Below, piece by piece: positions 18,113-52,824 of a stretch of 64,000 bases of DNA. A program made the position numbers and the translations under genes. The stretch's first letter is position 1. Each line of letters begins with the position of its first letter. Source of the DNA: Deltaproteobacteria bacterium (GTDB lineage: Bacteria > Myxococcota_A > Polyangia > HGW-17); the NCBI GenBank assembly GCA_016937155.1, contig JAFGWM010000085.1, positions 11,733-75,732 of the forward strand, written 5' to 3'. Under the pieces are notes generated by a model. It saw only the letters and a program-made list of their open reading frames with translations. It did no database searches and was not told the origin of the DNA.

Positions 18113-20809
18113 ATGAAAGAAAGTTATTTCAGTGAGTTGGAACCTACACTTGCTGGTGTACTCAGAGTGATTCCAGATCTGCTCTTTGTTACTGATGAAA
18201 AAGGGATTTTTCTGGATTTTAACTTATTTACAACAATTCCACTTGCCCTTCCAAGAGAAAAAATTATTGGAAGTTCATACAAGGATCTTGGATTTGACAG
18301 GGAAACGTTGAAGCGTCTGGATCAGGCGAGAGAGAGTGCAAACATCACCGGGAAGGTACAAAAAACTGAATATTCTCTTGAACCTGTTCCAGGTAAAAAA
18401 GAGTATTTTGTAGTCAGATTTGTACGCATCAAACCTGACAGAATACTCAGTATAGTAAAGGATGTAACTGAGGAAAAACAGCTAACTGAAAAACTGAATA
18501 TGCTGGGACAGGGTATCACTCAATCTCTGGACGGTGTAGCTGTAGTTGACAAAAATGGTCAGATCATTTTTTCCAATCTCTCATGGGCGAAGATCCATAA
18601 CTGGGAAACTTCAGAAACACTGAATGCCAACATAGGTGATTTTCATTCAGAAAAGCAGATGAATGAGGAAGTAATTCCATTTAACTTAAAAGTAAAAGAA
18701 TTTGGATCATGGACAGGGGAAGTTGGCCATATAAAAAAGGATGGAACAGCATTTCCATGTTTAATGACAACAACAGAGCTTAAAGACAGTAGTGGAGAGG
18801 TCCTTGGACTTATAGGCATAGCCAGAGATATCACAGAACAAAAAGAAAGAGAAAATGAACTTGAGCGGGCAAAGAATAAAGCTCAGGAAGCCAGTGATAA
18901 AAAATCAAAATTTCTGGCAAGTTTGAGCCATGAAATCAGAACACCGATGAATGGAATAATTGGTCTGAGTGAACTTCTTTTAGAAAACGAAACATCTGAC
19001 GATAAAAAAGATTATCTGGGAATGATTCTTTCCAGTGCGAAATCACTTATGAACATTATAAATGATATTCTGGATGTCAGCAGAATAGAGGCAGGTAAAG
19101 AAAATCTGGTTCAGGTAGAATTCGATCCAAGACAGGTAATAACAGAAACACTTTCCACACTTTCTGTAGAATCTTCAAGAAAATCCATCAATATTGACCA
19201 TATAATTTCATCCACTGTTTCCAGACGAATAATCAGTGATCCCACCAGACTCGCCCAGATTATTTCCAATATTTCTATAAATGCAGTGAAATACAGTAAA
19301 AGTGGTCCAGTTAAGGTGCTTGTAGATACTGAACATTTCAACGATCAGGATATTCTGGTTATAAATATAACCGATCACGGAGATGGCCTTTCCCCTCAGG
19401 ACCTTGAAAAAATCTGGATTCCATACGAAAGACTTTCCAGTTCCAGAAACACTAATATGACTGGAAGCGGATTGGGTCTGAGTATTGCAAAACAGCTGTG
19501 TGAATTACTGGGGGGATCAATCTCAGTTGAAAGTGAAAAGAATTCCGGAACAACATTTACAATTAAAATTCCGGTAAAACTGCCCTCTGAGAAACAATCA
19601 TCTGGTTATGACTCAGAACAGACACTTATCAAATCAGCTATGATCCTCAGTAAAAACAAAACTCTGTCCGATGGATTGAATGAATTTCTTAAAACCATGA
19701 AGATACACACTATTTCAACGGATAATCCTGTTGAAGCTGTATCTCTGATGGAAAATTTTTCCGAGCAGAACTCTCCAGAATTTGTAGTTATTGATACTGA
19801 AATTGACAGTTCGACTGATTATATTTTTTCTCAGTTTCTTGGAAATCTGAACAGATACAGTAAAAATTCCATTTTGTTTGTTATCAGAGCAGGCAACTCA
19901 GAAATACGTCAGGTTTACCAGAGTCTTGGTTACTCTAATTTTCTCACTGCCCCAGTAATTTTTTCGCATTTCATGAGAATTATTAAAAAAGCAGGCACGT
20001 CAAAAACTTTTACTCAAAATGCTCTGGAAAAGCTTCCTGCTTTTATTTCCGGATGCAACGCCCTTGTTTGTGAAGATAACGTTGTCAATCAGAAACTGGC
20101 AACTGTTCTTCTGGAAAAAGTAGGGTGCAAAGTTGATATCGCATCAAATGGAATTGAGGCGGTTGAGAAGGTTGAAGATAAATTTTATGACATAATTCTG
20201 ATGGACGTGGAAATGCCTACAATGGACGGATTGAGTGCAACACGTCATATAAGAAAATATCAGAATACACACAACTATGGAGAGCCTGTAATCATAGGTC
20301 TCACAGCGGGGGCAATGCCCGGTGACAGGGAAAAATGCCTTGAAGCTGGAATGAATATTTATATTCCTAAACCCTTAAAAGTTAAAGATTTTTATAATAC
20401 ACTAATATCTTCGCTGAATTCTGGAAATACTCCGAAAAAGGAAAATAAAATGCATATAGGTGAATTACTCAACCTCGCGAATTTAAAAGAAAGATATGGA
20501 GATGATTTCGAGCTTCTTTCAGAACTGATTAATATGTTTTCTGAAGATTATCCGGATTATATAAATGCTATTCGAACTGCACTTTCGGTTGGAGATTTCA
20601 ACTCCGTCAGAAAAAACGCACATACACTGAAAGGCTCCATATCAAATTTTGATGCAACAGAGGCAACCAGTCTGGCTTTCAGCATAGAAAAATCAGCATC
20701 TGACCAGAACGTAAATGAATTAAAACAAAAATTACTCAGACTTGAAGATGAAATCCGGAAAATGATTAATGCTATTTTGCTGCTGATTGATGAGGGATGG
20801 CCAATTTAA
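18113..20809 (+). CDS. hybrid sensor histidine kinase (PAS-PAS-HisKA-HATPase-REC-HPt)
   Basis: H-box LSHEIRTPMNGI, G-boxes (GSGLGLSI), receiver (DIILMDVEMPTMDG) and C-terminal HPt (HTLKGSISNF). GGAGAAA RBS. Confidence 0.9.
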   Translation: MKESYFSELEPTLAGVLRVIPDLLFVTDEKGIFLDFNLFTTIPLALPREKIIGSSYKDLGFDRETLKRLDQARESANITGKVQKTEYSLEPVPGKKEYFVVRFVRIKPDRILSIVKDVTEEKQLTEKLNMLGQGITQSLDGVAVVDKNGQIIFSNLSWAKIHNWETSETLNANIGDFHSEKQMNEEVIPFNLKVKEFGSWTGEVGHIKKDGTAFPCLMTTTELKDSSGEVLGLIGIARDITEQKERENELERAKNKAQEASDKKSKFLASLSHEIRTPMNGIIGLSELLLENETSDDKKDYLGMILSSAKSLMNIINDILDVSRIEAGKENLVQVEFDPRQVITETLSTLSVESSRKSINIDHIISSTVSRRIISDPTRLAQIISNISINAVKYSKSGPVKVLVDTEHFNDQDILVINITDHGDGLSPQDLEKIWIPYERLSSSRNTNMTGSGLGLSIAKQLCELLGGSISVESEKNSGTTFTIKIPVKLPSEKQSSGYDSEQTLIKSAMILSKNKTLSDGLNEFLKTMKIHTISTDNPVEAVSLMENFSEQNSPEFVVIDTEIDSSTDYIFSQFLGNLNRYSKNSILFVIRAGNSEIRQVYQSLGYSNFLTAPVIFSHFMRIIKKAGTSKTFTQNALEKLPAFISGCNALVCEDNVVNQKLATVLLEKVGCKVDIASNGIEAVEKVEDKFYDIILMDVEMPTMDGLSATRHIRKYQNTHNYGEPVIIGLTAGAMPGDREKCLEAGMNIYIPKPLKVKDFYNTLISSLNSGNTPKKENKMHIGELLNLANLKERYGDDFELLSELINMFSEDYPDYINAIRTALSVGDFNSVRKNAHTLKGSISNFDATEATSLAFSIEKSASDQNVNELKQKLLRLEDEIRKMINAILLLIDEGWPI

Positions 20810-34856: not shown

Positions 34857-36101
34857 TCACTTTCCTACGCAAAAACGGGAAAAGATATTTCCGTACAAAT
34901 CAAATCCTTCATACCCGAAAAGACCTTCAAGGAAAACAATTAATTTCCCGATATGCAGTGCCCTGACTTCCCAGAGATTCTCACGCTCGATACTTTCCGC
35001 CAAATTACGGATATCAGAAATATCATCAAGAAGTCTGGATGTTACCCAAATTTCAGGGGAATTATGTACGGAATCATTCAGTTTTAAAATTATTTCATTC
35101 AGGAGATCTGATACGCCCTCTCCTGTCAAACCACTGACATTTGTAATTTCTGAATCTTCACTGATTCCAAGATCCGATTTCATATGAACATTTATGATTT
35201 TGGGAGAAGTGATTTTTTCACCACCATTGATAACCAGATCTGCGCTGGAAAAAAGCTTTTTTGTCAGAGCAATTCCCTTGTCTTCAAGTGATTCTGAAGA
35301 CATACGGATACCGGCACTGTCTGTGATTCGAAAAGTCACTCCCCTATAAACACATTCGCCCTCAATGTAATCTCTGGTGGTACCTGGAATATCACTTACT
35401 ATAGCTCTTTCATACCCAAGGATCTGATTAAACAATGTGCTTTTCCCGCAGTTAGGGGGACCATACAAAAGAACACCGGGCACCCTGTGTTTTTCACTGC
35501 TTAAAAGCGCCTGAGCATAAAGAAAATCAATTTCTGACAGCAAGCCAAAAAGTCCATCAGTGGTTCCATCCTCATCAAACTCAATTCCGGACTCAATATC
35601 CACAAGCAGGGTCCTTGCCAGAGTCAGGATTTCTTCAAGCTTCCTGCTTACAGATGAACTACTGCGAATCAGTTTAAGCTCGTCCAGACTGGTTGCTCGA
35701 ATAATGTCATTAATGCTCTCAGCTTTCTCAATTGACATTTTACCATTAATAACAGCTCTGTAGGAAAATTCACCGGGATGAGCCTTTTTAACTCCCTGTT
35801 TCTCGAGAAATGTGCACAGAAGATCATAGATAATATCATTACCGTGAAAAGTTATTTCGAGTATATCTTCACCGGTGTATGATTTCGGCGCCGCAAACCA
35901 TACCAGAACCACATCGTCAACATCCGGAATATGCCTGTATCTGGCACTTCCCTGAGCCATGTCTCTTAATCCTGGAATAGAGTCACCTAGGAGATCTTTC
36001 AAACTGTTTCCGGTAATTCTGATCATACTGAGAGCACTAACTCCTGGAGGAGTTGCTCGAGCATAAACTGGACCGCTATAAAGATTTTCAGGCGTTATCA
36101 T
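34857..36101 (-). CDS. mnmE: tRNA modification GTPase MnmE
   Basis: G-domain GPPNCGKSTLFN, DIPGTTRD; C-terminal C(V)GK. Confidence 0.9.
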   Translation of the reverse strand: MITPENLYSGPVYARATPPGVSALSMIRITGNSLKDLLGDSIPGLRDMAQGSARYRHIPDVDDVVLVWFAAPKSYTGEDILEITFHGNDIIYDLLCTFLEKQGVKKAHPGEFSYRAVINGKMSIEKAESINDIIRATSLDELKLIRSSSSVSRKLEEILTLARTLLVDIESGIEFDEDGTTDGLFGLLSEIDFLYAQALLSSEKHRVPGVLLYGPPNCGKSTLFNQILGYERAIVSDIPGTTRDYIEGECVYRGVTFRITDSAGIRMSSESLEDKGIALTKKLFSSADLVINGGEKITSPKIINVHMKSDLGISEDSEITNVSGLTGEGVSDLLNEIILKLNDSVHNSPEIWVTSRLLDDISDIRNLAESIERENLWEVRALHIGKLIVFLEGLFGYEGFDLYGNIFSRFCVGK

Positions 36102-38223
36102 CTGTCTGATTCATATACCACTGATGAGCAAGACCTAAAATTGTATTTGTAAGAATATACAGTGTCAGTCCTGATGGGAGGAAAAGCATGATTCCAGTAA
36201 ACATAACAGGCATGAAATACATCATCATTTTAGCCTGCTGGTTGTCACCTGATGTCGGAGTGATCTTCTGCTGAATAAACATTAAAATACCCATAAGAAC
36301 CGGCAATACAAAATATGGGTCTTTTCCCGTAAGATCATCAATCCAACCGAATAGTGGAGCTCGGTAGAGTTCAACACTGGCCATAAGAGCATAATACCAT
36401 GCTATATAGATGGGCATTTGCAGAAACATGGGAAGACACCCGCCGAGAGGATTGACACCATGTTTTTTATAAAGAGCCATGATCTCTTCATTCAATTTTG
36501 CTTTGTCCCCGGCGTACTTTTTATTAAGCTCATCCATCTCGGGTTTGAGAGATGCCATTTTCTTCATACTTCTCATAGACTTATTAGTCCAGTAGAGCGT
36601 AGCAAGTTTGATGAGAATAGTCAGAAAAATTATAGCGAGACCCCAGTTTCCAAGAAAACCGTACACTATTTTAAGTAGCCAGATCATTGGCTTTCCAATA
36701 AACCAGAAAATGCCGAAATCCACACTTTCAGACAGTTTCGGATCCGCTGATGGTTCCTCCTTGGAGCCAGCTTCCGGTACCTTTTCAAAAATTTTAACTC
36801 TGTTGAGATGATTCAGGTCTTTGGGACCAATGAAAATTTTAAGAGGAAGTCGTTCAACCTGGCCAGGTTCGAGAACTTTCTTGCCTTTCATTGACATGGT
36901 TGTAATTATCAGGCCATAACCCGGCATTTCCTTGATAGGAACAGCCCTGAATGCACAACCACCATCATCAGCAGTATAGTTTTTGACAACGGCCATCAGA
37001 AAATATCTTGCATCAATTCCAGCCCATCTGGCACCCTTTGCAAAAACACTCTGCTTTGAATTTGTTCTGTTACAACTGCATCCGTCTGTACATCCGCTGC
37101 ATCCCCCACAACCGGATTTCGGACCACTCAAAATAGCTTGATAGCTCTGAACCTGTATACCATCAGAATCAAGACATATTGCTTCTTTTTGAACTGATAC
37201 CGGATTGAAAAATCCCCTTTCAGCCTCATCTTCATGAAGTGAGGGCACCTGAATTTCAATTTTTTTAACAGAGACTTTACTGTTTGTTATATTTTTAAAG
37301 TATACATCCAGCCCTATTTCATAACTATCCCTGTTGAATGTGTATACTTTTCTAATCTCCACAGGAAAACAGTTCTCTTCGGAACCGGATGAGGGAAGAC
37401 ACGGCTTGTCAGTATGAAGTTTCAGAGTAATTATGGTTTTATCACCTGATTCTTTTCTGGACTCCACTTCCCACTTCTGCTCAAGATAAAGATTTCTGGC
37501 CACGTTTGTCACGTGATAAAATGTATGGTTTTCAAGTGCTTCCGCATGCTTTTCAATCTGGATATTGCTGAATACAAAAGGAAGAAAACTGCTGTGCCAT
37601 GTTTTTATCATATCGATGGGATTCAGTTCACGTTCTCTCAGTCCTTTTTTGAGACTTTTTCTGGGTATTACATTTTCCTTAAAAGAAGGATGTTTAAAAG
37701 AAAAAGAACTGAAAACGCCACCATGAATCGTTAACTGGGCTTTGTAATACTTGTTTTCAAAATAGAGTTTGGCATCACTGGCAGATGTAACGTCATGAGC
37801 AGCCGGGGCACTTGTGTGATAAAAAGGACCTGTTTTCTTGCCTTTTGTGAAACTTGGTGCACTTTCAGCCTTTTTCTGCTCAACTCCTTGTGGAGCAGCA
37901 GGGGAAGCCTTCTCTTTTTCGACCTTTACAGCATCCTTTTTTGCCTCATTAGTTGCCGAAGAAAGTTCTGTGGCATCACCTGACTTCATTTCCGCGGGTA
38001 CTGCAGAAGGAACAATATTTTTTGGCTCAGATTTTACTACAGAACCGGTCTTATTATTGTCTCCAGTTTTTCCATGGACGATCTTATCTGCTGGAACTGC
38101 CATGACAGGTGTTGCCATCACGGAATTGGTTTTCCCCGTGGTAGCTGTCTTCTCCTGGGCACAAACGCCCCAAGCACTTACCAGCACAATTACAAAAACT
38201 CCCCATGCAATAATATTTTTCAT
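36088..38223 (-). CDS. yidC: membrane protein insertase YidC
   Basis: Conserved C-terminal 5-TM insertase core. Own start MKNIIAWG with GAGGA RBS located inside the yidD reading frame. Confidence 0.85.
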   Translation of the reverse strand: MKNIIAWGVFVIVLVSAWGVCAQEKTATTGKTNSVMATPVMAVPADKIVHGKTGDNNKTGSVVKSEPKNIVPSAVPAEMKSGDATELSSATNEAKKDAVKVEKEKASPAAPQGVEQKKAESAPSFTKGKKTGPFYHTSAPAAHDVTSASDAKLYFENKYYKAQLTIHGGVFSSFSFKHPSFKENVIPRKSLKKGLRERELNPIDMIKTWHSSFLPFVFSNIQIEKHAEALENHTFYHVTNVARNLYLEQKWEVESRKESGDKTIITLKLHTDKPCLPSSGSEENCFPVEIRKVYTFNRDSYEIGLDVYFKNITNSKVSVKKIEIQVPSLHEDEAERGFFNPVSVQKEAICLDSDGIQVQSYQAILSGPKSGCGGCSGCTDGCSCNRTNSKQSVFAKGARWAGIDARYFLMAVVKNYTADDGGCAFRAVPIKEMPGYGLIITTMSMKGKKVLEPGQVERLPLKIFIGPKDLNHLNRVKIFEKVPEAGSKEEPSADPKLSESVDFGIFWFIGKPMIWLLKIVYGFLGNWGLAIIFLTILIKLATLYWTNKSMRSMKKMASLKPEMDELNKKYAGDKAKLNEEIMALYKKHGVNPLGGCLPMFLQMPIYIAWYYALMASVELYRAPLFGWIDDLTGKDPYFVLPVLMGILMFIQQKITPTSGDNQQAKMMMYFMPVMFTGIMLFLPSGLTLYILTNTILGLAHQWYMNQTDDNA

Positions 38224-38475
38224 TGAAAATCCTCTATCCGATGTTGTTTGTGAGGGTGGTGGATCATATCCGCCTCTTGAAAAGGGGTTGCATCTGAGAA
38301 CACGCCAGATACTGTATAACATACCGATAAGCACTCCCTTGTTCTGAATGGACTCATACGCATAATGACTGCATGTCGGAAAATACCGACATGTTGGAGT
38401 CCTCTTCATGGGCGATAAGTATCTCTGATACACCCTTATCAGTTTTAACAGTAATTTTTTTATCAATTCGGTCAC
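38224..38475 (-). CDS. yidD: membrane protein insertion efficiency factor YidD (in-frame with yidC, no stop)
   Basis: YQRYLSP...CRYFPTCSHYAYESI hallmark; reading continues ...SDRGFS-MKNII into yidC without a stop. Confidence 0.75.
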
Positions 38476-39534: not shown

Positions 39535-39885
39535 ATGTTTAAAGAGCACCTCAGAAAAATAGTAGAAAATGTTGAAGGTGCAAAAGCCGCACTTCTGATG
39601 GAATTTGATGGTATTCAGGTTGACAGTTATGCTCAGGGTGACGTTGACATAATAACCCTCGGTACTGAATTCTCACAACTGATGACACACGTGAAACGGA
39701 CAGCCTCAATACTTGAAGTTGGAGATCTTGAGGAAATGATGGTGAAAACAGAAGATCTTATTCTCGTTTTCAGAGTTGTAAACAGTGATTATTTTCTTAC
39801 CACTGCCCTCTCCTCAGATGGTAATTTTGGAAAAGCGAGATTTGTATTAAGATTGACAGTTCCAAGAATAATGGAGGAATTCTAG
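39535..39885 (+). CDS. Roadblock/LC7-domain protein (MglB-like)
   Basis: 116 aa; GAKAALLMEFDGIQV...LILVFRVV pattern of roadblock/LC7; GGAGGA RBS. Confidence 0.8.
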   Translation: MFKEHLRKIVENVEGAKAALLMEFDGIQVDSYAQGDVDIITLGTEFSQLMTHVKRTASILEVGDLEEMMVKTEDLILVFRVVNSDYFLTTALSSDGNFGKARFVLRLTVPRIMEEF

Positions 39886-42872: not shown

Positions 42873-42892
42873 AACCGCAAAAGAGGTTTGTG

Positions 42893-44272
42893 ATGGCCGG
42901 TGAAAAAATTCTTGTCATTGATGACAGCCCCACAATTCTGAAAGTAGTTGAACTGGTTCTCACAAAGGCTGGTTTCAAAATTGTCAGTGCTGCCGATGGC
43001 GTGGAAGGAATCGAAAAAGCTGAATCAGAAATGCCTGACATGATTCTGCTGGATTTTGTTATGCCCAAACTTAACGGTTACCAGGTATGCAAACATCTGA
43101 GTGAAGATGATAATTTGAAGGATATCCCTGTGGTTCTAATGAGTGCCAAAGGAGAACAGGTGGGAGAGCGCTTCGTAAAAGTGATGGGAATAGTTGACTA
43201 TATCACAAAGCCCTTCAGCCCCGAGGCAATTACTGCTGTTGTTACCCACACACTTTCGAGAATCAGCGGAGAAGTGGAGCAACCTCCTGCTATACCTCAG
43301 ACAAGAGAAGAAGCTATGGAGGAAGCTGATTCCGAGACAAAATTATGGAAACAGGCTCTGTCCAGAATGCGTGGTAATATTTCCAGAACCGTTGCTGGTT
43401 CAATCAAGTCTGCTTTTACAATAGATGCTGCCCCGGACATCATTGTTTCAGAAATAAAAAGTGCTCTGACTGATAATTTTCTTGAAGCATGTCTTGGGGA
43501 ACTGAGAAGTCAATCACCAAAACTACTGCATGAGGAGGACAGCGGACTTACAGGTGATTTATCAATTATACCTGTGTCTGAAATATTTGTTCTTCTGCAG
43601 AGCCAAAAACAGACAGGTGCATTTACTGCCAGTATGGGGAATTCAAAAGTTGATATATATTTCAACGGGGGGAAAGTGGATCTGGCAAGTGCTGCAGGTG
43701 TCAGTGATGAATATCTTCTGGGACGCTATATTATTGAACTTGAATTGATGTCCAGAGACGAACTCGATGATTTCCTTTCGGACCCGGAAAATAGAAGTCT
43801 TCTGGGACTTCAGTTGATAAAATCCGGAAGGCTGGGTACAAAGGATGTCAAGCAGGCGATGTCCATGCAGACAAAAGAGCTTTGCTATGAGCTGCTAAGA
43901 TGGGATTCAGGAAGATTTACTTTCAGGAAAATTAAAGAACTCCCTGCTGTGGCAATAGAAGCTAATCTTGGATTAAGTATAGATGGTATCCTAATGGAAG
44001 GTTTCCGAAAAGTCGACGAATGGCATGTCATTGAAAGGGAAATTGATGATTTTGATTTGGTACTTCTCAGAAATGATGATGCAATTGTACAGATAGGAAG
44101 ACACAGACTCGAAAAAGATGAACTGACGGTACTTGAACTGATAAACGGAAGAAATACTGTCAGGGATATTATCAGAAAGAGTCGAATGGGCTCTTTTGAT
44201 GTAACTAAAATGCTGTACAGACTTCTCAGTGCCAAGCTGGTCCGGAAAAGAGTAAGTGCCGTCGCAACATGA
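42893..44272 (+). CDS. response regulator with REC plus DUF4388 domain
   Basis: REC (ILVIDDSPT...DMILLDFVMPKLNG) followed by GDLSIIPVSEIFVLLQSQKQTGAFT (DUF4388-type). AAGAGG RBS; ATG at 42893 is preferred over GTG at 42890. Confidence 0.8.
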   Translation: MAGEKILVIDDSPTILKVVELVLTKAGFKIVSAADGVEGIEKAESEMPDMILLDFVMPKLNGYQVCKHLSEDDNLKDIPVVLMSAKGEQVGERFVKVMGIVDYITKPFSPEAITAVVTHTLSRISGEVEQPPAIPQTREEAMEEADSETKLWKQALSRMRGNISRTVAGSIKSAFTIDAAPDIIVSEIKSALTDNFLEACLGELRSQSPKLLHEEDSGLTGDLSIIPVSEIFVLLQSQKQTGAFTASMGNSKVDIYFNGGKVDLASAAGVSDEYLLGRYIIELELMSRDELDDFLSDPENRSLLGLQLIKSGRLGTKDVKQAMSMQTKELCYELLRWDSGRFTFRKIKELPAVAIEANLGLSIDGILMEGFRKVDEWHVIEREIDDFDLVLLRNDDAIVQIGRHRLEKDELTVLELINGRNTVRDIIRKSRMGSFDVTKMLYRLLSAKLVRKRVSAVAT

Positions 44273-44310: not shown

Positions 44311-44682
44311 ATGGCAACTATATTGGTAGCTGATGATTCCCCAACTTCCAGAAAGGCGATTTCGTCTGTACTGGAACCTCTGGGCCATGAAATTATTCAA
44401 GCCTATGACGGAGCTGAAGCTTGGGAAAAAATTCAAATTTCAAAGCCGGATATTGTAATTCTTGATATACTCATGCCCAAGATTGGGGGTTTTGAGCTTT
44501 CAAGACAAATTAAAACCACGTCAAACCTCTCCCATATTGGGATTATTATTCTTACCTCACTTAAGCAGCAAACAAATAAATACTGGGGACTTAAACAGGG
44601 GGCAGACTTTTATCTGACAAAACCTGCTCATCCCAGAGAACTTGTTTCCTGCATTGAGTCACTGATGGAGACGGGCAGTTGA
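44311..44682 (+). CDS. single-domain CheY-like response regulator
   Basis: ILVADDSPTSRK...DIVILDILMPKIGG...K receiver motifs. Confidence 0.85.
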   Translation: MATILVADDSPTSRKAISSVLEPLGHEIIQAYDGAEAWEKIQISKPDIVILDILMPKIGGFELSRQIKTTSNLSHIGIIILTSLKQQTNKYWGLKQGADFYLTKPAHPRELVSCIESLMETGS

Positions 44683-45116
44683 CATCTTTCAAAGTTGTAG
44701 TTTTTCGACTTGGAGACCGATTCGCCGCACTTGAAGAGAAATATTCTGAAGAATTCTTTGTTTTAAACCATATCACCAGGGTTCCAGTTGCTCCTCCATA
44801 TATGGGAAATATATGCAACTGGCAGGGCAATATAATACCTGTAATTGATATTTCACCTTTTTTTGGTGAAAAAGCCAGAAGTGTTGTCACAAAACTTGTT
44901 GCAATTGCAGTGAACACTTCAGGGAAAGACAATCTGTTTTCTCTTGTAACTGACGGAGTAGAGGGAGTTTATGAACTCACAGACAAAACAGAAGAGAAAA
45001 ATGATTTACCCTTTTTCTCATCTAATCTGTTAGAGTTCAGAGGCGGAGATATTTATATGATTTCTCCGTTTATAATTGAAAAATTTATTACAAACCATCT
45101 TAAAAAGATAATTTGA
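44679..45116 (+). CDS. cheW: CheW-like coupling protein
   Basis: CheW-domain pattern (VVVFRLGDRFAALE...IIPVIDI). TTG start overlapping the CheY stop (TTGA). Confidence 0.75.
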   Translation: MTSFKVVVFRLGDRFAALEEKYSEEFFVLNHITRVPVAPPYMGNICNWQGNIIPVIDISPFFGEKARSVVTKLVAIAVNTSGKDNLFSLVTDGVEGVYELTDKTEEKNDLPFFSSNLLEFRGGDIYMISPFIIEKFITNHLKKII

Positions 45117-45124
45117 GAAAAGCG

Positions 45125-47356
45125 ATGAAAGCAAAAAGAAAACTTGCAGACAGGATTTTTCACCTTGGTATTACCATGATCCTTGTTCCTCTTGTGCTTC
45201 TGGTGGCATTACTGACAATCGTTTTTGTCAAACAAAAGAGGGTTCACACTGAATATGATACCGTAGTAAGGAAACTGCATTCAGATATGGACTCTATTGA
45301 TAAAAGACTTCATACTTATACCGTCCAGCTTAATGGTAATCAGAAGAAAATTCAGGATATAACCAGAAAACACAGCCTGAACAATATGAAGGAACAAATA
45401 AACTTCAGTGTAACTCAACTCCTCAGCACCCTGATCGGACACGGAATTATTAAAACAGATTTTGATCATACAATACTTCTAAGTCTTTACCTTGATAATA
45501 CTCTGAAGACAATTCAGGAACTGAGGCGAAATATCACCTCAAAAGATCCCCTGGATAAACAGGTAAAAATTACTGAAAAAGAAGAAGATAAAGGAAAATT
45601 AAAAAACCTCGATAAAATAGATTCTCTTGATCTTAAAATCAAAGAACTTTCTAGGAATTCCAGTGTAATTGACAAATCAAAACTTGCTAAACTATTAAAC
45701 TCCTTTTCTAAAAACGCCAGAATGGGAAATACCGGAAGGGTTATTTTCATAATAGAACATACCAGTTTGCATAAACACCAGATTGCGTGGTCAACACAAC
45801 CAGGATGGACAGGCAAGTTTATGGAGGATTTTGAACTGCTGCAGCCTTTGAGAGGTCTTTTAATTTCCAAGAATTACATGGAAAAATTCATGAAATTTCA
45901 GAGAGGCGGTGAAAGGGCATTTCTCCTCTACAATCTGATTCCAGCTACATCATCGTCAACTGATGCAAAGTATAACATTTCCACTGATAATTTTTATGGG
46001 ATGATTCCTGTGTGGGGGACACCCTATAGTCTTGGTGTACAAACATCAATGGCTGGGGATCTCGTTTCCACATTGGATTCCATTAGTAATTCTCTGGGTA
46101 ATATCAGTTCTTTCCTTAAAATAGCTAATGTTGATATTAGAAATGCAGATCAGTCCACAAAAAAGCTTCACAAAAGGTTCGGTACCGAGACCAGATCATC
46201 CAACAATCTTTTTCTTTATATAATAATATTTGCAGTAATTTTTGTCGGTGTTGTATTTTACCTGATAATCAGATCAATTCAGAGACGTCTCGTGGAACCG
46301 GTACTTCATATTCAGGATGTTACTTCCCATATCGTCGAGGGTGAATATTCAGCCCGCTGCACTCTTGAGACAAATGATGAACTTCAGGAGTTATCAGAAG
46401 CTATCAATGTCATGCTTGATCGTATTGTAACCCTGATTCAGAGTGAGGAGGACAAAATTTCAATGCAATCGGATATTGTCCAGCTTCTGGATGTTGTTTC
46501 TCAGGCATCCAATGGCGATCTTACTATACGTGGCCAGGTTTCAACTCCTGACTTTCAGGCAGTTATGGATGCATTCAATCATATGATGAGCTCCATCGGA
46601 AGCCTGGTAATAAAAGTTCGTTCCAGTGGAAATGGTGTTGAACACTACACAAAACTTATGCTTGATTCATTAAAACAGATACTCGAAAAAAGTACCCGTC
46701 AGGCAAATGATTTGGATATTGCAGCAAGAAAAATAAAGGCATTAGGAGATAGAAGTCAGGAAATTACCAGAATGGTTGAGCAAATTGGCTCCATTGCAAT
46801 GGAAACAAACACACTTGCACTTAACGCTACTCTCGAAGCATCAAGATCCGGAGACAGAGATACCGGAATAAGTCATTTAGCTGAACATGTGAGACAGCTT
46901 GCAGACGGACTGAAAAAAACAAAACAGGATATCGACAGTTTCATGGGAAGTATTCAGTTGGCTACTAATCATGCAGTCCAGTCAATGGAGGAAGTCCTCA
47001 TTCTTACTAGAGAAACTGCAGGGGAAGCAAGATTGAGTTTTGAGACAGCAAACAATACACATCAGGAAGCAGACCAGCTGGCTAAAAGTATTAGTATTTT
47101 TAAAATTAAATCTCAAATGGATGCTGAAAGAGAAGTCGAACTTAAATCATCGGTAAAATCCATCCTGAAAGATATTAAGCAAACCCGAAAACTTATTGGT
47201 GTTATGGATACAATGGAATTTGAATCCATGAATGATATTCTCAATGAGTTTGAAGAAAGCATAAGAGAAATGGGATTCCTTTACAGCAAAGCAATGTCAG
47301 ATGGTGAACGCTCACCCTCAACTGATGACGAAATCCCCGCAATTATCGAGGATTAA
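45125..47356 (+). CDS. methyl-accepting chemotaxis protein (2 TM, HAMP, divergent short signalling domain)
   Basis: HAMP (LVEPVLHIQDVTSHIVEGEY) and signalling-domain core IAMETNTLALNATLEASRSGD. ATG 45125 is preferred over TTG 45113. Confidence 0.78.
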   Translation: MKAKRKLADRIFHLGITMILVPLVLLVALLTIVFVKQKRVHTEYDTVVRKLHSDMDSIDKRLHTYTVQLNGNQKKIQDITRKHSLNNMKEQINFSVTQLLSTLIGHGIIKTDFDHTILLSLYLDNTLKTIQELRRNITSKDPLDKQVKITEKEEDKGKLKNLDKIDSLDLKIKELSRNSSVIDKSKLAKLLNSFSKNARMGNTGRVIFIIEHTSLHKHQIAWSTQPGWTGKFMEDFELLQPLRGLLISKNYMEKFMKFQRGGERAFLLYNLIPATSSSTDAKYNISTDNFYGMIPVWGTPYSLGVQTSMAGDLVSTLDSISNSLGNISSFLKIANVDIRNADQSTKKLHKRFGTETRSSNNLFLYIIIFAVIFVGVVFYLIIRSIQRRLVEPVLHIQDVTSHIVEGEYSARCTLETNDELQELSEAINVMLDRIVTLIQSEEDKISMQSDIVQLLDVVSQASNGDLTIRGQVSTPDFQAVMDAFNHMMSSIGSLVIKVRSSGNGVEHYTKLMLDSLKQILEKSTRQANDLDIAARKIKALGDRSQEITRMVEQIGSIAMETNTLALNATLEASRSGDRDTGISHLAEHVRQLADGLKKTKQDIDSFMGSIQLATNHAVQSMEEVLILTRETAGEARLSFETANNTHQEADQLAKSISIFKIKSQMDAEREVELKSSVKSILKDIKQTRKLIGVMDTMEFESMNDILNEFEESIREMGFLYSKAMSDGERSPSTDDEIPAIIED

Positions 47357-47359
47357 TCC

Positions 47360-50300
47360 ATGTCCGCTGTAAATAAAATTCAGATGTATCATTTGCTTAA
47401 ATCGCTGCATGATCATCCTGACAGCCGCATAAGAGATTTTGTTTCAATTGATTTCCTCAATTTAAAAATCGAATCAACAGAGAAAAATGATAATCTTCTG
47501 AATGATCTTTCAGATCTCTGTACTGACTCCGAACCGGATTCCGAGGATATAAGTGGTTTTTATGATGAAGAAATGCTAACTGCCCTTTTGGAGGTTTTCA
47601 GAGAAGAAGCCAATGAGCATTTGGATAATCTTCTGATTCAGATGAATTCCTACCCGTTGCCTGTTTATGATATTTACCGGACATTCCATACAATAAAGGG
47701 AAGTGCAGCAACTGTCGGGTTGACAAAAATTTCAGGCGCTTCAAAACTCCTCGAAGATGAATTCCATATATTTGCTGATAGCAAATCCATTCCTCAGCAG
47801 GATGAACTGTTTATCCTTGGCTTCTCTGCCGTCCTTCTGGCACTAATGGTGGTGCAGGGAGATGATCATGTTGATTCAATCAGAGGTGCACTGACTCTGA
47901 TGTCAGATGCTCACAATGAGGAACCTGAAGATAAAAATACTTTCACTGCAAATAGTCCCATCCATGATAACAGTAATAAAAATGCTGAAGTAACTGTCTG
48001 TGAAGATACAGTAGTTGACGAAATGGAAGCTATCCTTATGGAGGTATTCTCTCAGGAGGCAGAAGAGCATCTCGAATCATTTGACACCCTTGTTGAAGAA
48101 TTATCAAACGGGAATGATGTTATTCACGATCTTTTCAGAGTTACACATACTTTGAAAGGAGCCGCCGCGACTGTTGGAATAAGTAGGGTTAGTGACGCTG
48201 CACATGCTCTTGAGGATTTCTTTGAAACCCTTGAAAAAGACGGAGGGAAACTTGATAAAAACGACGTACTGAAGATATTACATGCAGGACAGTTGCTGAG
48301 AAATTCACTTACAGATTGCTCAGCCGAAACTGTTCAGGAAATAATCAGTACTATATCTGAGATAGATACAGGAAAAAAAGAAACCGCGCCTCTGCCTAAA
48401 GAAAACAGACAAAAGCAGACCACAACGGGAAGCAGAAACACAACATCAAGTATTCTCCGAATTAAAGTTGATGATATTGACAAGTTAATAAATACAAGTG
48501 AAGAACTTGTTCTTGTGAGAACTCAGATTGAAAAGAGCAGAGATGATTTCAACAGTATCACTGGAGATCTTCTGCTGAGTCACCACACACTCCGGAATTT
48601 CCTTATGGAAGACAGGAACAAAATGTCGGAGGCGGAAAGACTCGAAAGACTTTCCGAGCTTGAAGTTGAAATAGCTGAACTTATCTATAATCTTGAACAT
48701 TCAAGTTCAAATCTCACTACAGAATGTGTCAGTCTACAGACACTTGCCAGAACTGTTCAACAAAGGTTAATCGCTCTACGCATAACTGATTTCGAACTCC
48801 TCTTTATAAAGCTTAAGCAGGCTGTAAGAGAGCTCGCCTTTGCTTCAGATAAAGAGATAGAAATGAAGTTCACCGGACAATTTGTGGAAGTTGATAAGGG
48901 TGTTATTGATTCACTGTCCTCACCTCTGCTGCAGATTGTAAGAAACTGTGTCGCTCATGGAATTGAACCTCCTAAAAAACGGAGAAAAGCTGGCAAATCC
49001 GCCGGTGGACTTATTAAAGTTGATGCAATTCAGGAGGGTCATTTTGTCAGAATTATAATTGAAGATGATGGGAAAGGAATTGATACTGAAAAAATCCGTA
49101 ATGTAATCAGAAAAAGAAATCTTGTGGAATCAGAATCTGACATTGACCGACTTAAAGAAAAAGATCTTTTTGAAGCAATCTTTCTTCCCGGGTTTACAAC
49201 CAAGGATACTGCAGACTCAATGTCCGGAAGAGGTGTGGGACTTGATCTGGTCAGGGAGAAAATCAGAAAACTTGGTGGTGATGTTTCAGTGAAATCGGAA
49301 TCTGGAACTGGGACAAAATTTACCGTACGGGTTCCTCTGACAACTTTTATTTCCAGGGCTCTATTATTCACCATAGGAAACGAAGTATACGGAATACCCA
49401 GCGCTTATTGTGTCGAGACAATGGAATATATAAGTAAGAAAGAGATTTCTGTAGGAGCAAGGGTTATCTGGAACAGTGAATCCATTCCTATAATACCGCT
49501 GCATCACTATTTTGGTATTGAACGGCAGCAGTTTCTTTCAAGACCCTATTCTGTAATTATTTTAAAGCATGGCGAACAGCATTTCGGAATTGCAACAGAT
49601 TCCACAATCGGGATAAAGGATGTTACGGTTAAGCCAATTGGAAAGCTCCTCAGTTCCCTAAGATATTTCAGTGGAGCAATTATTTCAGGTGCAGGAACCA
49701 TCCAGTTAATATTTTCAGTTCCATTTTTATCAACTCTTGCAAGACCGACAATAGGCTTCAGAGCTTCTAAAGAAATTCAGAAACATATTTCAACTCCCAG
49801 AATTCTTGTTTGTGATGACTCCAAGAGTGTCCGTGAGGCCGCATCAAGAATAATTGCGGGTGCTGGATATGAAGTCACAAAGGCCCAGGACGGTTGGGAA
49901 GCCTGGAATATTCTTCACAGCGAGCGATTTGATCTTGTACTGACCGATCTTGAAATGCCAAGGATGAATGGGTGGGAATTAATTAATGAGATCAAGCGGG
50001 ATATGTTTCTCGAAGGAGTACCTGTTGTAGTGCTCTCATCACGAACAGGTGAAACCAGCCGAAAAAAAGCTATGGATGCAGGTGCAAACTATTTTGTATC
50101 AAAGCCAATAAAACCACTTATTTTACTTAGAGTACTGGAACAGTTTGTACCACTGGATGATACATCAATGAGCAATAGAATTGTCTTATTCGCCACAACA
50201 AATAAAGGAAAAGTCCTTGAGCTCAATTCGCTTATCGCAGGGTTAAATCTTGAAATCTGGGGAATGGATCAGTTCCCCCAGTTGGAAGACGTTATTGAGG

Positions 50301-50785
50301 ACGGTGCCACTTTTGAGGCTAATGCTATAAAGAAAGCCAGAATCCGCTGCCTTCAGACAGGTCTACCCTCCCTTGCAGATGACAGTGGACTTGAAGTATC
50401 AGCTTTGAATAACGAGCCGGGAATACACAGTGCCAGATATGCCGGTGAAAATGCAACCGACAATCAGAAAGTCGACTTTTTGCTTAAAAAAATGGAAGGT
50501 ATAACTGATCGCAGTGCCAGGTTTGTCAGCGTACTTGCATTCTGCACTTCTCCCGAGTCTACTCCAATCACAGTAAAAGGTGTGTGTAATGGATATATCG
50601 GACACATACCATCAGGTACAAATGGATTCGGTTATGATCCGATATTTATGCTGCCAAAAGGAAAATCCATGGCAGAACTCACAATGGATGAAAAAAATGA
50701 AGTCAGTCACAGAGCTGATGCTATGAATCAGATGCTGCCAATTCTGATGAAATTTGCCTCAGAAGAAAATTCTGATACACACTGA
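47360..50785 (+). CDS. cheA: CheA-type histidine kinase (2x HPt, dimerisation, HATPase, CheW-like, REC) continuing in-frame into an RdgB/Ham1 dITP/XTP pyrophosphatase domain
   Basis: Two HPt motifs (HTIKGSAATVG; HTLKGAAATVG), GVGLDLV G-box, CheW-like domain, REC (RILVCDDS...DLVLTDLEMPRMNG). The Ham1 domain occupies the last ~205 aa of the same ORF with no intervening stop. Confidence 0.85.
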   Translation: MSAVNKIQMYHLLKSLHDHPDSRIRDFVSIDFLNLKIESTEKNDNLLNDLSDLCTDSEPDSEDISGFYDEEMLTALLEVFREEANEHLDNLLIQMNSYPLPVYDIYRTFHTIKGSAATVGLTKISGASKLLEDEFHIFADSKSIPQQDELFILGFSAVLLALMVVQGDDHVDSIRGALTLMSDAHNEEPEDKNTFTANSPIHDNSNKNAEVTVCEDTVVDEMEAILMEVFSQEAEEHLESFDTLVEELSNGNDVIHDLFRVTHTLKGAAATVGISRVSDAAHALEDFFETLEKDGGKLDKNDVLKILHAGQLLRNSLTDCSAETVQEIISTISEIDTGKKETAPLPKENRQKQTTTGSRNTTSSILRIKVDDIDKLINTSEELVLVRTQIEKSRDDFNSITGDLLLSHHTLRNFLMEDRNKMSEAERLERLSELEVEIAELIYNLEHSSSNLTTECVSLQTLARTVQQRLIALRITDFELLFIKLKQAVRELAFASDKEIEMKFTGQFVEVDKGVIDSLSSPLLQIVRNCVAHGIEPPKKRRKAGKSAGGLIKVDAIQEGHFVRIIIEDDGKGIDTEKIRNVIRKRNLVESESDIDRLKEKDLFEAIFLPGFTTKDTADSMSGRGVGLDLVREKIRKLGGDVSVKSESGTGTKFTVRVPLTTFISRALLFTIGNEVYGIPSAYCVETMEYISKKEISVGARVIWNSESIPIIPLHHYFGIERQQFLSRPYSVIILKHGEQHFGIATDSTIGIKDVTVKPIGKLLSSLRYFSGAIISGAGTIQLIFSVPFLSTLARPTIGFRASKEIQKHISTPRILVCDDSKSVREAASRIIAGAGYEVTKAQDGWEAWNILHSERFDLVLTDLEMPRMNGWELINEIKRDMFLEGVPVVVLSSRTGETSRKKAMDAGANYFVSKPIKPLILLRVLEQFVPLDDTSMSNRIVLFATTNKGKVLELNSLIAGLNLEIWGMDQFPQLEDVIEDGATFEANAIKKARIRCLQTGLPSLADDSGLEVSALNNEPGIHSARYAGENATDNQKVDFLLKKMEGITDRSARFVSVLAFCTSPESTPITVKGVCNGYIGHIPSGTNGFGYDPIFMLPKGKSMAELTMDEKNEVSHRADAMNQMLPILMKFASEENSDTH
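50168..50785 (+). other. rdgB: RdgB/Ham1-family non-canonical purine NTP pyrophosphatase domain (internal Met MSNRIVLFATTNKGK)
   Basis: ATxNxGK, ADDSGL, ARF, FGYDP, SHR motifs, all in the RdgB order; in-frame with cheA. Confidence 0.8.
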
Positions 50786-50787
50786 TT

Positions 50788-52824
50788 CTATTTATTTTTA
50801 GGGATATATTTACTGCATCTGAACCCTACATGAGGAAACTGTTTTGACGCACTTAATCCCTGACGGTAGGTGGATCTTATCGAGCCCGTAGACCATCCAC
50901 CACCCCGTAAAGTATGCTCATCGTTCTTCCAATTTTCCGGGCCGGAGGGGTCTTTGAGAATCTTTTTTGAAACTTTTGAATAATATAACTCATCATAGAA
51001 GTCGGAAGTCCACTCCCAAACATTCCCACTCATATCCATAACACCAAACGGACTTTTACCTTCCTTTAAACTTCCAACAGGCCATGTCGATGATTTTCCA
51101 CAACCCTCACCGGCTGTACTGAATATAACTGCTTTCTTACAATCTGCTTCTGTCTTCCCCCAGGGATATAAATTTAATTTTTCGTTACCTCTTGCGGCGT
51201 ACTCCCATTCGGCCTCAGTGGGAAGACGTTTTGACGCCCAGGCACAATAAGTATTTGCCTGACTCCATGTAACACAGTTAACAGGATGATTTTTTCTGGC
51301 TTCATTTTTCCAGTTGCAGAATTTGGCTTCTTCCAGATTTTTTTGGAATTCTACAGGTTCTGTGCACACACGACTTTTTACACATTTTGCATACTTTTCT
51401 ACAGTTACTTCATACCGGTCAATTATATATGGAGCAAGACAAACCTTGTGCAGCGGCTTTTCACCCTTTTCTCCACCTTCAAACCCCATATTAAAACACA
51501 TATCAGGAGCATTTATCACGACATTTTCAGAATCACTTTGCGGAACAGGCGGTTTTGGGGGGTTCAAATCAGATTTCGGTGTAACTTTTTTTATAACTTC
51601 AACTTTCATAACTTCCGGGGTTTTCTCAACTATTTCTTTCTTATCGGCAACCACTGTTTTGTTTTTTTCAACTGAATCTCCCTTTAGCACAAAATTCTTG
51701 ATAATAAAAAACAGTCCAAGTGCAAAAACAGAACCTATAACTACCCCGGCTATTACCCCTATTGTTGCCCTTTTTGTTCTGCTCCCCCCCATTGTCGAAT
51801 GAGTAAGAAGTGCTCCTGATTCAATTGTAGCTGATTCTGATATATCAATATCACTAGAGTGATCCTGTAATGAACTCCGTCCAGAAGTAATTCCAGGAGA
51901 ACTCCTTATAGAGCTTATCTGCATCTGCTGTTCACGGACAAGATCCGCTGCCAGAATTTCAGGATCGACGTTCTTAATAACTTCAAAAAATTCGGTGAAA
52001 AATTCCTTAACAGATCCGTACCTTTCTTCAGGATTTTTTCTAAGACACTTCAGTACCACTTCACTGAGTTCCGGAGGTAAATTCTTAACCTTATCCTTCA
52101 GAGGTTCAGGTTCCTCAAGAATAAGATTAACCAGAAGATCGCTTACACTCCTGCCCTTTATTGGAAGTTCTCCACTGAGCATCTGATAAACAATAACCCC
52201 CAGACTGTAAATATCTGTGTGAGGACCGGTTTTTTCAATTTCGCCTCTGGCCTGTTCCGGTGACATATAAGCAGGTGTTCCGATTACCTGACCGGTTTTA
52301 GTCTTATGCGAAGTTGCTTCTGTGGATTCAGTTAGTTTAGCTATCCCGAAATCAAGAATCTTTACGTTGTACTGGTTGTCTCTTTCAGAAACAATTATAT
52401 TATCGGGTTTCAAATCCCTGTGAATTATCGAATTCTGATGGGCCGCGTCAAGGCCATCCACTATTTGCCTTACTATCCCGAATACTTCACCAATGCTGAA
52501 GGAGTCTCTCTCCTTCATAATTTTTGTGAGTTCTTTTCCTTCTATGAACTCCATGATGCAGTAATACCGTGTATCTTCCAACTGACCAAAATCAAAAATT
52601 CTAATGATATTCTGATGGAGTATTTTGTTTACAGCCTTTGCTTCAGAAATAAACCTGTGCACAACAGTTTCATCAGAAGAAAATGCCTGATTCAAGATTT
52701 TTATGGCAACCTTACTGCCAATATCAGGATGCTCCGCAAAATACACGCGACCGAAAGCTCCTTCACCTAAAAGCCTCTGAACCTTGTAACTTCCTATTGT
52801 GCTGCCAATTAAAATATCTTCCAT
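50788..52824 (-). CDS. Ser/Thr protein kinase with TM helix and C-terminal formylglycine-generating-enzyme (FGE-sulfatase) domain
   Basis: Kinase motifs (VAIKIL, HRDLKPDNIIV, DFGIAK); TM segment; C-terminal HPVNCVTW...GNVWEWTSD...RGGGW FGE hallmarks. Confidence 0.85.
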   Translation of the reverse strand: MEDILIGSTIGSYKVQRLLGEGAFGRVYFAEHPDIGSKVAIKILNQAFSSDETVVHRFISEAKAVNKILHQNIIRIFDFGQLEDTRYYCIMEFIEGKELTKIMKERDSFSIGEVFGIVRQIVDGLDAAHQNSIIHRDLKPDNIIVSERDNQYNVKILDFGIAKLTESTEATSHKTKTGQVIGTPAYMSPEQARGEIEKTGPHTDIYSLGVIVYQMLSGELPIKGRSVSDLLVNLILEEPEPLKDKVKNLPPELSEVVLKCLRKNPEERYGSVKEFFTEFFEVIKNVDPEILAADLVREQQMQISSIRSSPGITSGRSSLQDHSSDIDISESATIESGALLTHSTMGGSRTKRATIGVIAGVVIGSVFALGLFFIIKNFVLKGDSVEKNKTVVADKKEIVEKTPEVMKVEVIKKVTPKSDLNPPKPPVPQSDSENVVINAPDMCFNMGFEGGEKGEKPLHKVCLAPYIIDRYEVTVEKYAKCVKSRVCTEPVEFQKNLEEAKFCNWKNEARKNHPVNCVTWSQANTYCAWASKRLPTEAEWEYAARGNEKLNLYPWGKTEADCKKAVIFSTAGEGCGKSSTWPVGSLKEGKSPFGVMDMSGNVWEWTSDFYDELYYSKVSKKILKDPSGPENWKNDEHTLRGGGWSTGSIRSTYRQGLSASKQFPHVGFRCSKYIPKNK

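Follow-up and report, generated by a model that had tools for sequence, protein, structure and literature searches.

The DNA stretch analysed here (64,000 nucleotides of contig JAFGWM010000085.1 from the Deltaproteobacteria bacterium assembly GCA_016937155.1; hereafter the window) contains one gene in which a hybrid CheA-type chemotaxis kinase, built like PixL and ChpA, continues without interruption into an intact RdgB/Ham1 nucleotide pyrophosphatase. Sequence comparison shows this to be a real, ancient and selectively maintained fusion that occurs in one clade of Myxococcota only, and the resulting domain architecture is an undescribed one built from known parts. The explanation that best accounts for the data, to which we assign a probability of roughly 0.8, is a genuine and long-fixed fusion gene that gives rise to two products and whose Ham1 domain retains a house-cleaning function.

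The gene is a single open reading frame (ORF) of 1141 amino acids at 47360-50785 on the forward strand, in which RVLEQFVPLDDTS runs directly into MSNRIVLFATTNKGK with no stop codon between them; its own stop, TGA, lies at 50783-50785. The original prediction had described one frame of 1141 codons that is open from the receiver domain (REC) into Ham1, and both the ORF list and the DNA confirm it. The same prediction labelled the protein a CheA-CheW-REC kinase, which holds, and by the database search that it proposed implied a HisKA domain, which does not: the kinase is of the CheA type, with phosphorylatable Hpt histidines, the HATPase_c boxes and a CheW-like P5 domain. Both Hpt histidines (H110 and H263, in HT[IL]KG motifs), the N, G1 and G2 boxes of the kinase and the receiver pocket are invariant in an alignment of the 17 fused proteins described below. 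The H-kinase_dim family (PF02895) is unmatched in the window protein and in the fused clade, and is matched at the equivalent region of two unfused orthologues, L007 and L008.

The Ham1 part had been said to carry every RdgB/Ham1 motif, and family matches and residue conservation agree on this point. Ham1p_like (PF01725) matches amino acids 942-1126 with an E-value of 6.7e-59 and a score of 199.4 bits (cut-off 22.5) and spans positions 1-184 of the 186 in the profile; the NCBIfam equivalog TIGR00042 (RdgB/HAM1) scores 169 bits against a curated cut-off of 145.35; and the Escherichia coli RdgB structures 1K7K and 2PYU are matched over their full length (E ~1e-41). The equivalents of E. coli N10, K13, E41, K53, D68, D69, F154, Y156, D157, K177, H182 and R183 do not vary among the 17 fused proteins and are conserved to at least 85% in 67 free RdgBs (the middle of the E. 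coli reference sequence agrees with the 1K7K alignment). In window numbering, the motifs N948, K951, E980, D1007-D1008-S-G-L, F1090-G-Y-D-P and S1116-H-R are invariant across the alignment, and every residue universally conserved among the 67 free RdgBs and E. coli RdgB is kept. Like E. coli RdgB (YggV), Ham1 and ITPA, the domain thus gives a full-length match with all conserved catalytic residues present; unlike the free RdgBs, which stand alone at about 200 amino acids, it forms the C-terminus of an 1141-amino-acid kinase and has a few clade-specific invariant residues. These are I941, F944, W967, R996, Q999 and F1061, each found in no more than 13% of the 67 free RdgBs and located in or near Ham1 beta-1. 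The residue pattern suggests that the domain still hydrolyses inosine, xanthosine and deoxyinosine triphosphates (ITP, XTP and dITP).

The fusion is not private to this contig. Searching 5.8 billion protein clusters returned 17 proteins (P0001-P0017) of 1141-1221 amino acids from NCBI, JGI, ENA and Logan, ranging from 100% down to 46% identity and all carrying Hpt, HATPase_c, CheW, Response_reg and Ham1; matches from P0018 onward have no Ham1 domain. A search for kinase-Ham1 architectures was among the checks originally proposed, and all 17 proteins that it found are CheA-type with a REC domain. At the DNA level we compared 18 distinct loci, which came from GTDB species representatives (L001-L006), exact-protein look-ups (L081-L083 and L101-L105) and a metagenome scan (L085-L087, with L085 the same locus as L081 and L086 the same as L003), with L084 added separately. 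The frame across the junction is open in all 18, every one from a Myxococcota metagenome bin, with no stop, frameshift or indel, over a span of GC content from 0.30 (L083) to 0.67 (L102). A stop or frameshift between REC and Ham1 in orthologues had been named as the observation that would turn the two halves into ordinary adjacent genes; the comparison found none, and covalent fusion, the first of three alternatives that the original prediction offered, is the one that these 17 proteins and 18 uninterrupted junctions support. Gene DNA identical to that of the window was also recovered from run SRR13394436 in an assembly made independently (Logan). One candidate for a split version, P0295, was rejected: annotated as a complete Myxococcota RdgB of 201 amino acids (GenBank MBU1240772.1, contig JAHJPZ010000684.1, locus L084, positions 155-760), it was called from the internal ATG, and upstream of that ATG the frame stays open and reads ...VLSSRTGE...KPIKP...PINEAAM. 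Since the start of the contig falls within the receiver domain, with an open frame from there to the ATG, P0295 is another fused copy, in truncated form. A further hit of the metagenome scan, L088, was set aside as an ordinary, unrelated stand-alone rdgB (40% identity).

The two halves of the protein have evolved together. Mean pairwise identity among the 17 proteins is highest in REC (78%), followed by the P3-like region (70%), Ham1 (67%), CheW (64%) and HATPase (58%); Ham1 is thus comparable to the kinase core domains (58-70%) and is not decaying. The nearest relative of each fused Ham1 is another fused Ham1 (63-94% identity) as against 47-56% to free RdgBs, and the pairwise identities of kinase core and Ham1 co-vary with r = 0.95 over 136 pairs. 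This clustering and co-variation indicate one ancient fusion followed by co-divergence, and the alignments show both halves to be under purifying selection and to have diverged together since that single event.

The combination is also rare. A query with the REC-Ham1 segment against a library of 1.84 billion cluster representatives, standing for about 15 billion proteins, gave two that cover both domains, P0002 and P0016, both from this clade; within those proteins the combination is confined to it. Another candidate, P0128 (434 amino acids, two matched stretches), proved to be a tandem Ham1-Ham1 protein. Searches of the literature in full text turned up no CheA-Ham1 or receiver-Ham1 protein, and to our knowledge Ham1 is not a described output domain of response regulators. 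NCBI and JGI give P0001-P0009 no other name than 'RdgB/HAM1 family non-canonical purine NTP pyrophosphatase', and since the proteins are named solely in this way the kinase is invisible to text searches of annotation.

We then consider how the RdgB part is translated. The codon at the junction is ATG or GTG in 16 of the 18 loci: it is ATG in the window, L002, L004, L006 and L084, and GTG in all 10 distinct loci of a subclade with valine at this position (the Val subclade); L001 has ATC and L083 has ATT. To control for biased codon use and common ancestry, the 10 Val-subclade genes, 62-91% identical in DNA, were aligned by codon. Only 2 of the 40 invariant valine columns are GTG throughout, the junction being one of them, and a single one of the 49 invariant glutamate columns is GAG throughout, namely that four codons upstream of the junction. 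Together with the next glutamate (GAG or GAA), it spells GAGGAG or GAGGAA 6-7 nucleotides before the GTG, amid neighbouring codons that vary synonymously. GTG and GAGGAR are thus kept beyond the needs of the protein, which points to selection at the nucleotide level of the kind expected for a Shine-Dalgarno (SD) sequence and a start codon in this subclade; on that evidence internal initiation probably yields free RdgB as well, at least in the Val subclade. In the window, the internal ATG (50168-50170, Met937) is preceded by GGATGA at 50154-50159, the weak SD that had been noted originally, although at a spacing of 8 nucleotides and not the 9 given then. L001 and L083 have no canonical start at the junction, ATC and ATT being rare initiators at best, and keep every Ham1 motif, so internal initiation is not the sole route to the domain. 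Translation of rdgB from the internal Met, the second alternative of the original prediction, therefore stands as a source of an additional product, with start codons at 16 of 18 junctions and selection in the Val subclade, and fails as the only source in view of the ATC and ATT lineages.

These observations suggest an origin for the fusion. The closest unfused orthologues from the genome scan, L007 and L008, are 34-36% identical and share the operon; L007 ends ...KPVNRRVIVARIEELLAAR and its stop, roughly at the start of the linker, and the junction Met accordingly matches Met1 of a free RdgB. An ancestral rdgB may have lain just downstream of the kinase, translationally coupled to it like other genes of the operon, until the stop codon of the kinase was lost; that the junction residue sits exactly at the position of RdgB Met1 would fit such an origin. 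The gene would now yield a full-length kinase-RdgB of about 127 kDa and a second product, made in most lineages from the preserved SD and ATG or GTG, namely free RdgB of about 23 kDa, and the Ham1 domain would keep its house-cleaning hydrolysis of ITP, XTP and dITP while part of the kinase. Escherichia coli cheA, which makes CheA-L and CheA-S from in-frame starts, provides a precedent for an internal start in a cheA gene. The fused gene resembles it in the conserved SD-like GAGGAR and GTG/ATG at the junction, and differs in that the short product of E. coli is a truncated kinase and the putative one here a separate enzyme. RdgB and CheA are both homodimers, so Ham1 could ride harmlessly on the kinase dimer. 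No second Ham1 or rdgB was found in the window or in the flanks of the loci examined.

Several observations weigh against this explanation. Tblastn found no Ham1 in 74 unfused CheA loci with up to 10 kb of flank on each side, and neither L007 nor L008 has an rdgB downstream of the kinase, so the proposed ancestral adjacency is unobserved; the 208-amino-acid ORF that follows the L007 kinase with a 4-nucleotide overlap was considered as an ancestral rdgB and has no Pfam match, and the gene downstream in L008 encodes an aminotransferase. The GGATGA of the window is comparable to the SD sequences of some nearby real genes and weaker than others. Ham1 is joined to unrelated partners as well: the other long Ham1 proteins listed are fusions to RNase PH, aldose epimerase, diacylglycerol (DAG) kinase/YegS and Uma2 and one tandem Ham1, which means that fusion need not imply functional coupling. 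These proteins resemble the fused kinases in that Ham1 tolerates partners at either its N- or C-terminus (RNase PH-Ham1 as well as Ham1-aldose epimerase, Ham1-DAG kinase/YegS and Ham1-Uma2), and are unlike them in that their partners include no signalling domain. The AlphaFold2 (AF2) model of amino acids 805-1141 has a mean predicted local distance difference test (pLDDT) score of 83 and a predicted template modelling (pTM) score of 0.58; it places receiver alpha-5 at amino acids 919-929, followed by the ten-residue coil VPLDDTSMSN (pLDDT ~68-77) and Ham1 beta-1 (RIVLF). The two domains are each modelled with confidence, but with this pTM and the lower confidence in the linker the model defines neither their relative orientation nor a fixed REC-Ham1 interface. 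Finally, the 14-column junction has no gap column among the 17 proteins, versus 57 in linker 161-222 and 72 in linker 321-372, yet it is short and the 16-column CheW-REC link is likewise gap-free, so this constancy is modest evidence of constraint.

Four other readings have to be weighed against a fused gene with two products. According to the first, kinase and RdgB are two functionally separate proteins: rdgB has an internal SD and start of its own from which it is translated, and the fusion polypeptide is an incidental, neutral by-product of a lost stop. We regard this as unlikely, though it deserves serious weight: ATG or GTG has been retained at nearly all junctions, the GAGGAR and GTG of the Val subclade are under nucleotide-level selection, Ham1 fuses promiscuously to unrelated neighbours elsewhere and AF2 gives no confident REC-Ham1 interface. 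Nevertheless, although in most linkers any one of 2-4 different single-base changes would create a stop codon and synonymous turnover goes on nearby, neither a stop nor a frameshift has reappeared in any lineage; the junction linker has a fixed length while others within the protein differ in length by dozens of residues; and L001 and L083 keep an intact Ham1 that is presumably made there mainly as a fusion.

The second reading takes REC and Ham1 as a signalling unit, either as an output, in which phosphorylated Asp863 switches the pyrophosphatase, or as an input, in which ITP or XTP binding modulates the receiver and kinase, and would thereby link the purine pool to pilus-type motility signalling. 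An enzyme placed directly C-terminal to alpha-5 on a short linker is the usual geometry of a receiver and its effector, and here the effector follows alpha-5 on a fixed linker of ten residues. In this respect the protein is like the response regulators with enzymatic output (CheB, PleD and RpfG), having a receiver with a complete phospho-acceptor site and then an enzyme domain, and unlike them in that the receiver is the C-terminal one of a hybrid kinase. That REC is the most conserved domain, that six clade-invariant residues lie in or near Ham1 beta-1 and that the fusion has been retained over 30-67% GC also speak for a signalling unit. However, the AF2 model is uninformative on this point, the active site is indistinguishable from that of a house-cleaning RdgB, the conserved internal start implies that the cell also wants an unregulated free RdgB, and the C-terminal REC of PixL already has a role of its own (PMC11181946). 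We therefore consider this reading doubtful. As an extension of the fused gene with two products, gating of the enzyme by phosphorylation of Asp863, or feedback of nucleotide binding on the kinase, is likewise offered only tentatively, and the fuller proposal, in which the receiver gates a purine-NTP pyrophosphatase or Ham1 reports ITP and XTP to the kinase while the internal start supplies unregulated free RdgB, is more speculative again. The canonical active site, the preserved internal start and the AF2 model point towards a looser relationship between kinase and RdgB, and the fixed linker and clade-specific residues point towards regulatory coupling.

The third reading, in which Ham1 is a non-catalytic module such as an extra dimerisation domain or a nucleotide sensor without hydrolysis, is very improbable. 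RdgB is generally known to be homodimeric and Pfam detects no H-kinase_dim in the fused proteins, as such a module would have it, but a conserved P3-like region is present, whose homologue Pfam assigns to H-kinase_dim in both L007 and L008, and the catalytic and substrate-binding residues shared by free RdgBs are all invariant in the fused clade. The fourth supposes two ordinary neighbouring genes whose separating stop was lost through an error of sequencing or assembly, or through a recent private mutation (the third alternative of the original prediction). It can be dismissed, for beyond the a priori consideration that single-contig sequence of a metagenome-assembled genome can carry such errors nothing was found in its favour, and it is refuted by the identical Logan assembly, the same open junction at 18 distinct loci, which stem from many samples and from four sources of data, the ancient age of the fusion (r = 0.95) and the recognition of the seemingly stand-alone P0295 as a fused gene cut by the end of its contig.

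The fused gene is the last of an operon (Table 1) whose domain content and gene order, as read from the sequence, resemble those of pilus-type (PixL/ChpA) chemosensory systems. PixL (Tax1, Synechocystis) and ChpA (Pil-Chp, Pseudomonas aeruginosa) are hybrid CheA kinases of type-IV-pilus chemosensory systems, and many of the unfused homologues, the nearest included, are annotated as ChpA. The window operon shares with these systems the order of a PATAN-type regulator, CheY, CheW, a methyl-accepting chemotaxis protein (MCP) and the kinase, and the presence of multiple Hpt domains and a C-terminal REC in the hybrid CheA matches the description of PixL (PMC11181946). PixL has as its partners PixG, a PATAN regulator, and PixH, which is CheY-like, and its C-terminal REC serves as a sink for phosphate or as a negative regulator (PMC11181946). 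There are also differences: nothing follows the receiver in PixL and ChpA, whereas a complete RdgB does here, and in the regulator at 42890-44272 REC precedes PATAN, the reverse of cyanobacterial PixG/PatA, in which the receiver is C-terminal (acceptor D326). This regulator is 54-74% identical in fused-clade loci and 56% identical in the unfused L008.

Gaps or overlaps between genes of the operon are 3-4 nucleotides at three junctions and at most 38 nucleotides at the others. The order of a Roadblock-like gene, a tetratricopeptide repeat (TPR) gene, REC-PATAN, CheY, CheW, MCP and kinase is kept across the fused clade, with the fused gene always last. In further contrast to the PixL and ChpA systems, no CheB or CheR is present within the operon, and no pilus (pil) genes were found among the scanned ORFs of the window. 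The operon is divergent from rpmH-rnpA-yidD/yidC-mnmE, and the rpmH-rnpA-yidC neighbourhood is retained across the whole GC span, which is unusually wide for one clade. Downstream of the fused gene the genes differ among loci and, where genes are called, are usually convergent.

Table 1. Features of the fused gene and of the genes preceding it in the operon (positions in the window; aa, amino acids).
Feature	Coordinates	Strand	Basis
Fused gene, Hpt-Hpt-P3-like-HATPase_c-CheW-REC-Ham1, 1141 aa	47360..50785	+	ORF list, Pfam, alignment
Hpt domain 1, aa 69-160, invariant His110	47564..47839	+	Pfam Hpt; H110 T111 K113 G114 invariant
Hpt domain 2, aa 226-305, invariant His263	48035..48274	+	Pfam; H263 T264 L265 K266 G267 invariant
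Conserved helical region, presumed P3 dimerisation domain, aa 373-500	48476..48859	+	70% mean pairwise identity, no gaps; P3 assignment presumed
HATPase_c kinase domain, aa 521-661	48920..49342	+	Pfam; N529 H533 G534, D569 D570 G571 G573, G623 R624 G625 G627 invariant (N, G1, G2 boxes)
CheW-like P5 domain, aa 667-789	49358..49726	+	Pfam
Receiver domain, aa 815-929	49802..50146	+	Pfam 815-923; D819 D820 D863 S893/S894 K915 invariant; alpha-5 end aa 929 (AF2)
Ten-residue junction VPLDDTSMSN, REC alpha-5 to Ham1 beta-1	50147..50176	+	AF2 coil; no gap column in 17 proteins
Internal ATG (Met937), putative ancestral rdgB start position, candidate internal initiation site	50168..50170	+	ATG/GTG/ATC/ATT at the same column in relatives
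RdgB/Ham1 dITP/XTP pyrophosphatase domain, aa 942-1126	50183..50737	+	Pfam, TIGR00042, 1K7K/2PYU match, catalytic residues
Small ORF at operon head, 116 aa, Roadblock/LC7 (MglB-like) by position	39535..39885	+	Window copy has no Pfam match at 1e-5
TPR-repeat protein, 982 aa	39924..42872	+	Pfam TPR; syntenic in L003, L004, L005, L006, L081, L082
Response regulator, REC (7-118) and PATAN/DUF4388 (221-379), PixG/PilG-like	42890..44272	+	Pfam
Single-domain CheY-like receiver, PixH/PilH-like	44311..44682	+	Pfam Response_reg; 76-86% identical in relatives
CheW, PixI/PilI-like	44679..45116	+	Pfam CheW; 4-nt overlap with each neighbouring gene
MCP, HAMP and MCPsignal, PixJ/PilJ-like	45113..47356	+	Pfam; syntenic

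Some features of the surroundings deserve mention in their own right. The counterparts of the 116-amino-acid ORF in L081 and L082 weakly match Robl_LC7 (PF03259), and such weak Roadblock/LC7 matches hint at a link to polarity GTPase modules. On the reverse strand, 50788-52824 encodes a Ser/Thr protein kinase fused to a formylglycine-generating enzyme (FGE)-sulfatase domain (SUMF1-like); this convergent gene is not conserved at the other fused-clade loci examined, and its stop lies two nucleotides from that of the fused gene, which leaves no room for a terminator. YidD and YidC are joined in one reverse-strand ORF of 795 amino acids at 36088-38475 (Pfam YidD 6-72, YidC_periplas and 60KD_IMP), and this fusion is conserved in the clade, the L081 and L082 products (737 and 745 amino acids) having the same three families. 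A separate hybrid histidine kinase of 898 amino acids (PAS-HisKA-HATPase_c-REC-Hpt) is encoded at 18113-20809 on the forward strand, about 27 kb upstream.

CheA kinases and RdgB are textbook proteins that are not known to have been linked before, and their union may surprise specialists in chemotaxis and two-component signalling; it is known from uncultured organisms only. Public annotation hides a complete chemosensory kinase in these organisms and lists at least one truncated copy as a free-standing RdgB. Should the fusion be neutral, it would be a curiosity confined to an uncultured lineage. The gene is also a clean natural case in which one reading frame seems to specify a fusion protein and, from a preserved internal start, the free enzyme, and a fusion kept for so long in every member of a deep clade is a Rosetta-stone hint of physical cooperation between the two proteins. 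It may point to a new effector domain for receivers or else to control of motility by a metabolic input; if the proposed coupling is true, pilus-type motility signalling would be wired to the quality of the nucleotide pool.

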